64,000 nucleotides of DNA, taken from assembly GCA_029856125.1 (NCBI GenBank), contig JAHQWJ010000147.1, positions 1-64,000 of the forward strand, given 5' to 3'. Below the pieces are notes generated by a model. It saw only the letters and a program-made list of their open reading frames with translations, made no database searches and was not told the origin of the DNA. The translations under genes and the position numbers were made by a program. Every line of letters starts with the position of its first letter. The stretch's first letter is position 1. Positions 6,483 through 58,297 of the stretch are shown piece after piece. This DNA comes from Promethearchaeia archaeon. Lineage in GTDB: Archaea > Asgardarchaeota > Lokiarchaeia > Sigyniarchaeales > SOKP01.

Positions 6483-7283
6483 TCAAAAGTAATCAGATAA
6501 TTTCTTCTGTTCGTTGAACTCTCTTAGTGGAATTTTAAGCCTCTTCTTTAACAAGTTTACAGATTCGGGAGCGTTACCTTGAAAGTGGTTATTCACAATT
6601 ATGAAAATTTCATAAATATTAGGCATTTTCTCAATCATTTGTAGGTTTCTAAGAAGATCGTTTATTCTTTCTTCTTGATCTCTTTGGACTCTATCAAAGA
6701 CTGTTAATTCGCGATCACCAATTAGGCGAATATAATATGTTTTTTGTCTTGGCAAATAGTAAGCTTTAATTCCCGGCATATACGTTGTCCCTAAGATAAT
6801 TTTCGAATTTTTTAATACTTCGTATAGCAGATCTTCCATAAACCAAGAATTATCACGTAACTCAATGAAGTACATATTCTCAGTAGGGAGTTCACTTATT
6901 AGATATTTTAGTTGGTGAAAATGGTTTTCAGTGTATTTAAACCATGGAGGGAATTGTAATAAATAACCGAAGATCTTTTCTTTTAAAGGAGATAGTCTAT
7001 AAAAAAATTGCAGGACTGAATCTTCTATGTTAGCGTTTTTGAAATTATGAGTAATCTCTTGCCAGACTTTAACTGCGAATTTAAAATCTGCTGGAGTTTG
7101 TTCTTTCCAATTTTGAACGACTGAAAATTTAGGAAGACTGTAGAATGTGTTATTGATTTCAATTATATTGAAATATTTTGCATAATAACCAAGTCTATTG
7201 TGTGATTCGAGCAGTTTAGGATAAAATGGACCTATCCAATCTTTATAATCCCATCCAGCGCACCCAATATTTATTCTAACCAT
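6483..7283 (-). CDS. DUF72 (YecE-like) protein
   Basis: IGCAGWDYKDW.GPFYP, EINNTFY, FAVK, LLQFPP, IELR, YIRL.G, NNHF.G.A. Confidence 0.92.
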   Translation of the reverse strand: MVRINIGCAGWDYKDWIGPFYPKLLESHNRLGYYAKYFNIIEINNTFYSLPKFSVVQNWKEQTPADFKFAVKVWQEITHNFKNANIEDSVLQFFYRLSPLKEKIFGYLLQFPPWFKYTENHFHQLKYLISELPTENMYFIELRDNSWFMEDLLYEVLKNSKIILGTTYMPGIKAYYLPRQKTYYIRLIGDRELTVFDRVQRDQEERINDLLRNLQMIEKMPNIYEIFIIVNNHFQGNAPESVNLLKKRLKIPLREFNEQKKLSDYF

Positions 7284-7532
7284 CCAGAATCACGATTATA
7301 ATTCCATTAAATAAACATATCTTACCTTTTCATATAAACCAAAGCGATTTTCAATAAAATAAATTAGCCTTATAAAAAATTAATGACTTCGCAAAGCTTA
7401 ATATAACAGAAGAAGAATTAATTTATATAGCTTAAAACAATGTACAGAAAATCTAAACAATATTTGAGAATATAATTAGATAATTTTAATATATTAATAA
7501 TTTTACAGATAAAGCAAAAAGGTGAGTAAAGT

Positions 7533-8195
7533 ATTACTATTAATTGGGAACGCGCAGAGCTGTCACCTGAAAAAGCATTAAAAGTAGAAGGAAGGGTTCT
7601 GTTAGATTTACGGGCTAAAATTAACGAATTGGAAAGAGAATTAGCTAAAAATCAAGAAGAACTTCAGAAAACTAAAGAAACTTTAAAGGAAACTCACAAT
7701 AAATTAGTCGGAAGAGAAAAAAGCCTAGTTAAAATAAGCGAGAAATTCTCATCGGCTAAGGAGAATTTAGACAGTGTTTCTGAAAATAAGTTACATTCCG
7801 ATATTGAGTTGACTCGACTGAAACCAAAGCTTGAAGAACTTGAAGCAAATCTCGCTAACGCAAATGATAATATTAGTAATTTGAAGAGTGAATTAAAATT
7901 TACGACTGAAAAAGCAAATGAAATGGAACAAAACCTTAAATTCAAGGAAAAGGCGATAGAAAACCACAAGGACGATTTAGAAAGAAGAAAAAAGGAGATA
8001 GACAATTTTAATGAAGTGGTTAAATTAAATCAAAAAGAAACTGATGAATTAATAAATAAAATCAAATCACTTGAAGCAAAACTTTCAGAAATAAGATCCA
8101 CACCAAAAGTTCTAGAACGAATTAAAGAAATGATGGCTCATAAAGGTTTTATTAGTGACCGTGAGCTCGATCGTATTTTTATAGAATTCGATTAG
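7533..8195 (+). CDS. Long coiled-coil protein, paralog A; predicted AUU start (220 aa)
   Basis: Track ORF starts at TTG 7629, but the frame is open from ATT 7533 (in-frame TAA at 7527) and encodes ITINWERAELSPEKALKVEGRVLLDLRAKINEL, conserved in paralog B. AAGGTGA SD at 7519-7525. Confidence 0.8.
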   Translation: MTINWERAELSPEKALKVEGRVLLDLRAKINELERELAKNQEELQKTKETLKETHNKLVGREKSLVKISEKFSSAKENLDSVSENKLHSDIELTRLKPKLEELEANLANANDNISNLKSELKFTTEKANEMEQNLKFKEKAIENHKDDLERRKKEIDNFNEVVKLNQKETDELINKIKSLEAKLSEIRSTPKVLERIKEMMAHKGFISDRELDRIFIEFD

Positions 8196-8359
8196 ATTAT
8201 AGGAGCTTCTCTTATACAGCAACTCTAAGTTTTAAAAAATCGTACATAAGCAAATATAATACGAGTTAATAAATAATTTGAAAAAATTATATATTGTAAT
8301 ATAAAAATAATAATTTAAAATAATGATATTAAAAGTAAATAAATGAAGGTGTAAGAAAT

Positions 8360-9058
8360 ATTACAATAGACTGGCAAAAAGCTAAAGAAAATCCAGAAAA
8401 GGCTCAAAAAGTAGAGGGACGATTTTTATTAGACCTTAGAGCAAAAATTGATGAGCTAGAGCAGCAATTTAAGCAAAAAAAACAGAAATTAGATTCCGTG
8501 TCAAAAGAACTGAGCGAAACTAAAGATAACTTAGCGGTAAATGAAAAGAAGCTCGACGAAACTACTCAAGATCTAAATTCAACTAAAGCAGAGTTAACAT
8601 CTGTGTCAGAAGAAAAAAACAAAATTAGTACAGAATTAGATTCATTAAAAAATGATAAATCTGACCTTGAGATGAAATACAATGAAGCAGAGGAGAAACT
8701 GAAGGAATTAGAACCAAAAGTAGGTTCTTTAAAAGAAGAATACGAGCAAAGAGAAAGGGAGCTAGAAAGTGTTAAGAAAGACCTTCAACAGACAATTTCT
8801 GATAAGTATGTTGAGATCGAAAGCTTAAAAGACGAGTTAACTGGACAATTGGAAACTAAAGAGAGCGAAATAACCACTGCTAAGGATGAAGTTGAAGCGA
8901 AGAACAAAGAAATTGACGCAATTAAACTTAAGCTAACTTCTTTAGAGGATTTCATTGAAGAATCAAAAGGAGCACCTCAAGTTATTGAAAAAATTAGAGA
9001 AACTATGGCACATAAAGGATTTTTGTCGGATCGGGAATTTGAAGATTTATTTCAGTGA
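8360..9058 (+). CDS. Long coiled-coil protein, paralog B; predicted AUU start (232 aa)
   Basis: Track ORF starts at GTG 8498, but the frame from ATT 8360 encodes ITIDWQKAKENPEKAQKVEGRFLLDLRAKIDEL. AAGGTG SD at 8346-8351. C-terminal P.V.E.I.E.MAHKGF.SDRE is shared with paralog A. Confidence 0.8.
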   Translation: MTIDWQKAKENPEKAQKVEGRFLLDLRAKIDELEQQFKQKKQKLDSVSKELSETKDNLAVNEKKLDETTQDLNSTKAELTSVSEEKNKISTELDSLKNDKSDLEMKYNEAEEKLKELEPKVGSLKEEYEQRERELESVKKDLQQTISDKYVEIESLKDELTGQLETKESEITTAKDEVEAKNKEIDAIKLKLTSLEDFIEESKGAPQVIEKIRETMAHKGFLSDREFEDLFQ

Positions 9059-9208: not shown

Positions 9209-10480
9209 TTGTTATTTCAAATTGTATCGTTAGAGGATTTTTACATCTTATTCTTTAAAATCATTGTATCGTTTTTCTGTGGCTTCGTTATAGGAATAGA
9301 GCGCACCAGAGTGGCAGCTCAATATGGCGCTCGAGACCACATCTTTTTTTCAATGATTTCGACCTCTTTAATAATTTTGTATGATATGTTTTTACCTGTG
9401 TCTGAAGGATTTATTCTAATTATTTTATTTTTTGGTGGAATGATTATTTTTTTGTTGATTGGATCTATCTATAGGTTATTTCTGGAAAAAGACCCCGGTT
9501 ATACAACTACTCTTTCAATGATATTAGCGATGATTGTTGGTATAATGTGTTATTATAATGAATATCTGGCAATTACCATTTCTGTTATATTTTTGATCAT
9601 CCTATCTACAAAAAAGCAATTTAATAAAATTAGAAGTATGAAAGATATTGAATGGACGGGAACCGTCGAGTTTATTGCAATTGTTGTTTTGCTTTACATT
9701 TTGATTCCAGAGAGTTTATTAGTTTATGGAATCAACATTAAATCAATTATAACAATTTTTATATTAATTTTAGCTGTAAAATATTTTAGCTACTTTATAT
9801 TGAGAAGTACAACTGAGAAAAATTTATATTACATTTCTTTTTTAGGAGGTTTTGCTCACAGTGAAGCTACAACTGTTGAGTTAGCTGAGGCTGGCGCATC
9901 ATCTTCATCAGTTTGGCTCGTAATTCAGACTATGCTAATTAGAATGTTAATTGTGTTGATGATCACTCCAACATTATTATCATATGCTTGGATTCCAATA
10001 CTTTCCACAGCGTCTATAGGATTAATCTTTTCATTTTTAATTTTAAAGAAAAAAGAAACTCAATTAACTTTAGATAAAATTAAAAATCCTCTCTCAATTA
10101 AAGGTGCTTTAATCTTTTCGGGAACATATTTAATTGGTTTGATAATATCTATCGTTTTAAGTTTTTTTGAAATAAATATTCTTGCTTATTACATTATTGT
10201 GTTTGGGATCGGATTTCTTTCCGGCGGTGCGTCCTCTCTGTTTGTAGCAACAGCATTTTATAAATCCTTAATTAACGAAGGGAATGCTCTATTGATGTTA
10301 ACAATTGGTTTATCGGCTGCGATAATAAATAAGATCTTCTATTCAACTCGAGCTTTGAAGGAAGATAAAAATAAAAAAGGATATGTTATTCATCTCGTCT
10401 TTTACATCATTATAACTATTTTTCTGTTAATCACGATGACCTTTTTAACAATAATTACATTCAATCTATCAATCTTCTGA
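9209..10480 (+). CDS. MgtC/SapB family membrane protein (MgtC + DUF4010)
   Basis: GFVIGIER...GARDH, PGYTTT and FLGGFAHSEATT motifs; about 12 TM segments. Confidence 0.8.
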   Translation: MLFQIVSLEDFYILFFKIIVSFFCGFVIGIERTRVAAQYGARDHIFFSMISTSLIILYDMFLPVSEGFILIILFFGGMIIFLLIGSIYRLFLEKDPGYTTTLSMILAMIVGIMCYYNEYLAITISVIFLIILSTKKQFNKIRSMKDIEWTGTVEFIAIVVLLYILIPESLLVYGINIKSIITIFILILAVKYFSYFILRSTTEKNLYYISFLGGFAHSEATTVELAEAGASSSSVWLVIQTMLIRMLIVLMITPTLLSYAWIPILSTASIGLIFSFLILKKKETQLTLDKIKNPLSIKGALIFSGTYLIGLIISIVLSFFEINILAYYIIVFGIGFLSGGASSLFVATAFYKSLINEGNALLMLTIGLSAAIINKIFYSTRALKEDKNKKGYVIHLVFYIIITIFLLITMTFLTIITFNLSIF

Positions 10481-57725: not shown

Positions 57726-57976
57726 AAAATGAAATAAGAATAAGGGTAATTAATTACTTTTGGTGATGACACATCAAATACAATAGTGTCCATGATTACT
57801 AATGAGCCTATAGGAAATCATTTTTAACGCTTTGGCTATAATTTTATAGCAATTGATTTTTCGCAATTTTTTCTTAGATGTTTTTTTAAAAATAATTTAT
57901 AAACGATCGAGAATAGTCATATATACATTTTTAGCAATTACACAAAAATGTGAAATGTATTGAGAGGTGAAATTAA

Positions 57977-58297
57977 ATGGTAATAGTTATTATGAGATTA
58001 ATTCAAAAAATAGCAAATGGTAAATGGGATGAATTAGAAGAGCTTGATAAAAAATTCAATGAAATTGAGGACAAAATAGGTTATCCTCCAAAAAAGCGAT
58101 ATCGTAGCCTATCGGGGGCCTATGACAACAACGTAATTATTATTGAAAGAGAATGGCAAAGCTTATCAAAAATGGAAAAGGGTTTGACAAAAGGTTTCTT
58201 AGATCCTGAATTAGCAAAATTAGAAAAAAAATTAGGTTCAATTGTTGAATGGCAAAAAACAGAATTGTATGTACCTCATCCACCATTTCCGGTATAA
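57977..58297 (+). CDS. Small NIPSNAP/dimeric alpha-beta barrel-like protein
   Basis: Strong GAGGTGA SD 7 nt upstream; IEREWQSL..ME pattern. Confidence 0.6.
   Translation: MVIVIMRLIQKIANGKWDELEELDKKFNEIEDKIGYPPKKRYRSLSGAYDNNVIIIEREWQSLSKMEKGLTKGFLDPELAKLEKKLGSIVEWQKTELYVPHPPFPV

Follow-up and report, generated by a model that had tools for sequence, protein, structure and literature searches.

Two tandem paralogous genes of a Promethearchaeia archaeon, A and B, are probably translated from ATT codons by ordinary Shine-Dalgarno (SD)-directed archaeal initiation, on ribosomes that in this genus would tolerate single-mismatch start codons positioned by an SD box. We put the probability of this reading, which is drawn from comparison of genomic sequences, at about four in five. 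Nothing in it is particular to the pair: A and B illustrate a habit of the whole lineage and are no special case. The genes lie in a stretch of 64,000 nucleotides (contig JAHQWJ010000147.1, positions 1 to 64,000), which we refer to as the window.

Start sites of the tandem genes

The features of the two loci, together with a canonical gene used as control and a third paralog (gene C) on another contig of the same genome, are as follows.

7520–7525, + strand: SD box (AGGTGA) ahead of gene A, complementary to the 3′ tail GGAUCACCUCCU of the 16S rRNA in the same genome
7521–7524, + strand: GGTG core upstream of gene A, with an 8 nt spacer to the ATT at 7533
7527–7529, + strand: stop codon TAA in the frame of gene A, two codons upstream of the ATT
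7533–7535, + strand: ATT, almost certainly the start codon of gene A, at the start column of its orthologs
7533–8195, + strand: gene A, 220 aa, with a conserved head of about 25 aa, a coiled-coil rod and a two-helix tail
7533–7628, + strand: segment of gene A (32 codons) that is dropped if TTG 7629 is taken as the start
8336–8338, + strand: stop codon TAA in the frame of gene B, seven codons upstream of the ATT
8346–8351, + strand: SD box AAGGTG of gene B, conserved in orthologs
8348–8351, + strand: GGTG core upstream of gene B, with an 8 nt spacer to the ATT at 8360
8360–8362, + strand: ATT, almost certainly the start codon of gene B, at the ortholog column (EM posterior 0.78)
8360–9058, + strand: gene B, 232 aa, a paralog 37% identical to A, with the same head–rod–tail layout
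57966–57979, + strand: control, a canonical gene with GGTG at 57966–57969, a 7 nt spacer and ATG at 57977
Contig C28, 103–993, − strand: third paralog, 296 aa, with the same head and an ATT start at 993

The stops, GGTG boxes, ATT codons, first canonical codons and ATG control were all found where the first-pass annotation had placed them. The first canonical codon in frame is TTG 7629 in gene A, 32 codons in, and GTG 8498 in gene B, 46 codons in. A box of the GGTG or GTGA type is preserved in nearly all gene A orthologs. The two genes had been described as encoding the same 33-residue block with many synonymous differences, the similarity beginning exactly at the ATT. Over these 33 codons the heads have 24 residues in common, 15 of them through synonymous codons, indicating selection on the head extension at the protein level; before the ATT the genes share a single codon, the GGT of the SD box, and both parts of the description therefore stand. 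Comparison of one head with the other by tblastn within the genome gave E values of 9e-11 and 3e-11, and a 40-residue head profile matched 190 proteins among 1.84 billion, almost always at their extreme N-terminus; for most of the 150 representatives listed the match starts with residue 1. These values, together with the matches at protein N-termini, show that the likeness of the heads is not due to chance.

The start codon was read four positions above a conserved Trp in 100 members of the family, drawn from the genus and more widely from its order and class; it is at this column that sequence conservation sets in. In 30 orthologs of gene A the column contained ATT (10), TTG (7), GTT (6), ATA (2), ATG (2) or GTG (1), the other two being ambiguous where ATT adjoins GTG; three of the TTG, GTG and ATG calls fall one or two codons away from the column. 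The 28 orthologs of gene B had ATT (18), TTG (8), GTG (1) or ATG (1), and 21 copies of the third paralog had ATT (10), ATG (7), GTG (2), TTG (1) or CTG (1). In other families (21 copies) the codon was ATG (15), TTG (3), GTG (1), ATT (1) or ACG (1). As the column alternates among initiator-type codons, with an SD box upstream and stops just above, it is the start. The spacing from the SD box, the lack of any canonical start codon in frame ahead of the conserved part and the presence of ATG, GTG and TTG in the ortholog column all agree with SD-led initiation of A and B. Database homologs with a canonical codon start with MSINW or MGIDW, and the remaining ones are cut short. The ESM Atlas entry for gene A starts at residue 33 and so lacks 32 residues, in line with the prediction that gene callers would miss these starts. 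Four gene B orthologs have an in-frame GTG within the SD box, a possible alternative start.

Several other features of the region were noted. A mini-ORF of three codons (8343–8354, + strand, ATG AAG GTG TAA), out of frame with gene B, overlaps the SD box of that gene and stops 5 nt upstream of its ATT. It occurs in several close relatives and is missing from others, and is therefore probably incidental, re-initiation being conceivable. The pair is flanked by an ordinary divergent DUF72 gene (6483–7289, − strand) and a gene for an MgtC/DUF4010 membrane protein (9209–10480, + strand); neither showed a functional connection with A and B. A scan for sigma-70 promoters, a model unsuited to archaea, gave matches at chance level.

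We regard it as scarcely credible that the ATT codons reflect an artefact or alternative decoding, whether the cause be errors in sequencing, pseudogenes, decoding of ATH as Met, a special initiator tRNA of Ile type or editing of the RNA to AUG. Logan contigs from other sediment samples spanned 7300–8297 and 8330–8467 (sample X6) and 7472–7689 (sample X10), each with 0 differences; figures for sample X7 are identical to those for X6 and look like the same data filed twice. The ATT starts are therefore not an assembly error, and the frames of A and B are intact in about 30 genomes. An RNA run (X19) matched only 8647–8797, and thus neither start site. The first-pass claim of non-canonical initiation at ATT, which had been staked in part on the absence of ATG from reads at these sites, is upheld by the ortholog column, by the MSINW and MGIDW homologs and by the Logan contigs, which contain no ATG there.

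The start codons of A and B change repeatedly on the genus tree, alternating among ATT, GTT, ATA, ATG, TTG and GTG, with at least eight changes in gene A and at least four in gene B. One subclade has TTG, GTG or ATG almost throughout, and in the ATT subclade gene B starts with ATT in all 16 genomes. Across orthologs the ATT is conserved to the extent that the column is often ATT; the codon is not invariant, and is replaced by TTG, GTT, ATA or GTG and rarely by ATG. The changes, to ATG and TTG among others, largely refute the further suggestion that A and B are themselves dedicated sensors of start-codon fidelity, like infC or pcnB. Retention of ATT in both paralogs after the duplication, and in gene B throughout the ATT subclade, would suit such a role; the products, however, show no link to translation (no similarity to translation factors), and in this genome only ATG and TTG starts outnumber ATT. 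A sensor function of the pair is accordingly very unlikely. ATG is found at 3 of the 58 A and B starts, as against 75% genome-wide, a hint of selection for a weak start; the rarity of ATG suggests such selection and not pure drift, with the reservation that these genomes are related.

The proteins and their distribution

In the AlphaFold2 model of the gene A product (mean pLDDT 88, pTM 0.37) a short head is followed by a single helix spanning residues 20–188 and by a tail of two helices. No fold match to the model was found in the PDB, and no Pfam or NCBIfam family scored over cut-off for either protein. The most conserved motif of the family, W-x6-P-x-K-x5-G-x2-LLD, sits inside the 32 codons dropped from gene A, and so is lost with the 32 and 46 residues missing from A and B when they are called from canonical codons. 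The tails of A and B carry the motif HKGF.SD.E, whereas in other families the protein occurs as a single-copy form, for the most part with a Cys-rich zinc-ribbon-like tail. A tail of this latter kind also forms the C-terminus of the third paralog, which looks like the ancestral form, occurring across Lokiarchaeia.

Every one of the 40 family genomes and the 3 sister-family genomes contained the head; no copy was found among 157 others of the phylum. Additional families within the order and the class have it too, and on this distribution it looks like a core feature of Lokiarchaeia. The A and B products are Lokiarchaeia-specific head–rod–tail coiled coils of no named family. They resemble crescentin, intermediate-filament-like and SMC-related proteins in having a long unbroken helix between conserved caps, but the matches cover the rod only and fall far below the curated cut-offs (SMC_prok_B 37–43 bits against 567; Rod_CreS 23 against 100), there is no ATPase head or membrane segment, and the head motif is confined to Lokiarchaeia; identification as SMC, Rad50 or crescentin was not accepted. 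An ESM Atlas cluster at 0.91 with 134 shared features pointed to DUF8221, which was not taken as evidence of family, and the other clusters are unnamed. There is an even chance that the protein is a dimeric tether or scaffold with the head serving for assembly or docking.

Prediction of an A–B complex gave 0.45 against 0.00 for the best control, with a contact agreement of 89% and partner pLDDT of at least 74. Of 80 solved complexes 58 pass the mark used, as do 2 of 110 mismatches, passes at or below 0.60 comprising 7 of the 80 solved complexes and both passing mismatches, and the controls were not paralogous coiled coils. The model thus lends weak support to a heterodimer. If A and B do pair, matched weak starts might serve to hold them at equal amounts, and the start classes often agree within a genome (ATT/ATT, TTG/TTG, ATG/ATG). 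This agreement amounts, however, to just two or three independent events; a lineage-wide codon preference (ATA in the relative G017, ATT in this genome) explains it equally well, and mismatched pairs such as ATG/ATT and ATA/TTG occur. Even allowing for the complex prediction, matching of expression is an unlikely purpose of the ATT starts.

Near-cognate starts across the genome

The genome comprises 3.69 Mb at 32.7% GC. An EM fit with a free start codon to 2,979 frames assigned 74.7% of starts to ATG, 9.6% to TTG, 4.2% to ATT and 3.8% to GTG, making ATT the third commonest, with ATA at 1.4%, ATC at 1.3%, and ACG and CTG at 0.5% each. The best non-cognate codon reached 0.5% and the abundant AAA 0.3%; the noise floor, from a fit made without a negative-control genome, is a few percent spread over many codons. 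Near-cognate codons made up 22 of the 517 confident calls with a strong SD box. A model-free scan used 259 ORFs with no canonical codon in their first 20 codons. SD boxes followed by ATT were found in frame 31 times, compared with 2 and 0 times when the frame was shifted; for ATA the counts were 11 against 4 and 2, and for ATC 6 against 1 and 2. The spacing from SD box to ATT peaked at 5–8 nt, inside the 5–11 nt range of ATG in this genome.

Pairwise comparison with G017 (56% identical), filtered against antisense shadow frames, yielded about 11 clear near-cognate cases in 228 orthologs, several of them opposite ATG. The preference is reversed in G017, where the EM fit, on a small sample, gave ATA 5.2% and ATT 1.3%. 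In a 400-kb sample of a sister-family genome none of 61 confident starts was ATH, so that near-cognate starts may be more of a habit in this family than in its sister, from which the sample is small. Genes which we take, from recognisable N-terminal motifs, to be uS4 (ATC), RadA (ATT), TatD (ATT) and MvhD (ATA) were among those with near-cognate starts, as presumably were genes for RuBisCO-like, small GTPase, Sm-like and ubiquitin-like (ACG) proteins. Three of these are located as follows.

Contig C82, 28855–29364, + strand: uS4, apparent ATC start behind a strong SD box
Contig C152, 47496–48734, + strand: RadA, apparent ATT start behind a strong SD box
Contig C56, 9316–9573, + strand: ubiquitin-like protein, ACG start, 96% identical to its G017 ortholog

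The G017 ortholog of the ubiquitin-like gene starts with ATG. A further gene with GAGGT and ATT lies at 68401 (− strand) on the contig of A and B, just past the window, and its G017 ortholog likewise has ATT. Overall, near-cognate starts (ATT, ATA, ATC, ACG, CTG, GTT) would be used by about 5–8% of genes, on the order of 150–250. As housekeeping genes are included, ATT is not special to A and B, and the first-pass view of AUU initiation as rare does not apply to this organism.

The host had been taken to be an archaeon, which is supported: the 16S 3′ tail is of archaeal type, and intron-bearing tRNAs are present. The initiator tRNA is normal, with a CAU anticodon, A1:U72 and the three G–C pairs, and tRNA-Ile(GAU) is an ordinary elongator with G1:C72 and without the three G–C pairs; no odd or Ile-type initiator was seen among the tRNAs of this genome. 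Internal ATT, ATC and ATA codons align with Ile in 52–58% of cases and with Met in 2.4–2.9%, which rules out reassignment of ATA or ATH to Met. The code is thus unchanged, and these results also count against alternative decoding of the A and B starts. Deletion of KsgA/Dim1 favours non-AUG genes (PMC7897474), but the gene is intact in this genome and nearly all relatives. Loss of aIF1 was likewise rejected as a cause, the factor being found in 49 of 61 genomes, this one included. Among the components checked (aIF1, KsgA/Dim1, initiator tRNA and code) no loss was found that would explain relaxed start selection.

Under SD-directed initiation, the GGUG box would pair with the 16S tail and bring AUU into the P site, where the normal Met-tRNAi (CAU) would accept it despite the third-position mismatch. 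The resulting proteins would begin M-T-I-N/D-W, presumably with Met at the N-terminus. Once positioned by an SD box, single-mismatch starts would be tolerated by the ribosomes of this Lokiarchaeia genus, and the weak codon of A and B, probably of lower efficiency, would most likely just set modest expression, being interchangeable with TTG, GTG, GTT and ATA and only rarely with ATG. On the simplest model, start selection would be relaxed through SD anchoring combined with a permissive or low-abundance aIF1. The most plausible cause would be that aIF1, the gene of which itself opens with an invariant ATT, has a low set-point.

aIF1 and comparison with known systems

The aIF1 gene lies outside the window.

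Contig C84, 118611–118961, + strand: aIF1/SUI1, PF01253 over cut-off

In its frame a TGA stands three codons above the ATT, and no canonical codon follows for 100 codons. All 32 copies read from the genus (loci L031–L060 and L161–L180) start with ATT, and the case for aIF1 draws on the lack of any canonical revertant among these related genomes; four genomes contain a second, divergent aIF1 that also starts with ATT. An internal Ile five codons into the gene is ATT in 28 of 28 copies as well, and the invariant start ATT alone is therefore no proof of selection. The aIF1 of this genome has the lowest Pfam score among the copies found, and QGE in place of the QGD motif, the D of which we take to be the position altered in yeast sui1-1. 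The D-to-E change was rejected as a cause of ATT use, as most ATT-using relatives retain D.

As a fidelity factor with a conserved AUU and no alternative start, aIF1 has sequence attributes expected of an infC-type sensor. Sulfolobus aIF1 discriminates against AUU in vitro (PMC4705826); since IF3 and eIF1 autoregulate via poor starts, aIF1 is a natural candidate for feedback. By analogy, it would be a better candidate start-codon sensor than A or B, its regulation being putative. A tentative possibility is that aIF1 autoregulates through its invariant AUU and that near-cognate-start genes, A and B included, have been selected to rise when aIF1 or the stringency of initiation falls. Such a regulon would fit alongside SD-directed initiation, adding regulation as its purpose. 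It accords with the invariance of the aIF1 start while the same genomes vary those of A, B and C, with the mostly TTG, ATA or GTG starts of sister-family aIF1, and with the scarcity of ATG in A and B. The near-cognate-start genes are, however, of mixed function, a whole subclade has switched A and B to TTG, GTG or ATG, and the internal Ile codon also weighs against it. The broader picture, in which relaxed, aIF1-tuned initiation is general in Lokiarchaeia and the level of an autoregulated aIF1 sets the output of some 150–250 genes, uS4, RadA and the A/B pair among them, is more speculative still and on balance unlikely.

As gene callers permit only ATG, GTG and TTG, several percent of Loki proteins would be truncated or missed; those affected include small GTPases as well as candidate ubiquitin-like and cytoskeleton-like proteins that figure in studies of how eukaryotes arose. 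The aIF1 AUU loop, if it exists, would be the archaeal equivalent of the feedback loops of IF3 and eIF1 and becomes directly testable, with a bearing on the origin of strict AUG selection in eukaryotes.

Near-cognate initiation is known from infC, from pcnB, another bacterial AUU start, and from organelles. SD-directed initiation at A and B resembles that of infC in that an SD-positioned AUU would be read by the initiator tRNA. E. coli infC, which encodes IF3, starts at AUU and controls its own translation (Butler 1987, as cited in PMC4705826); aIF1 of this genus, also a proofreading factor, starts at a conserved AUU, although it is not homologous to IF3. In contrast to infC, A and B vary their AUU and encode no fidelity factor, and whereas AUU starts very few genes in E. 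coli, ATT accounts for about 4% of starts here. eIF1 autoregulates through an AUG in poor context (Ivanov 2010, as cited in PMC4705826 and PMC6237735). The homologous SUI1-family factor aIF1 similarly has a suboptimal start on its own mRNA, but there the codon itself is near-cognate and SD-positioned; the likeness, with putative regulation, concerns aIF1 and not A and B.

Percent-level use of AUU in an archaeal lineage, or an AUU-started aIF1, was not found described in the literature searched; nor, within incomplete coverage, was lineage-wide non-AUG use in Asgard archaea. The one Asgard ATT start met with there is that inferred for atubA of Kariarchaeaceae, where it is described as rare (PMC13394414). 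Like A and B, atubA is an Asgard gene with ATT behind a ribosome-binding site and a deposited protein that is cut short; unlike them, it is a single gene, of another Asgard class, for which no genome-wide habit was reported. In Haloferax volcanii ribosome profiling placed near-cognate codons at about 30% of putative alternative sites (PMC7261190). Here too, archaeal ribosomes would be placed at near-cognate codons. The Haloferax sites are, however, alternative ones, set aside as possible false positives, whereas those described here are the sole conserved starts of core genes.
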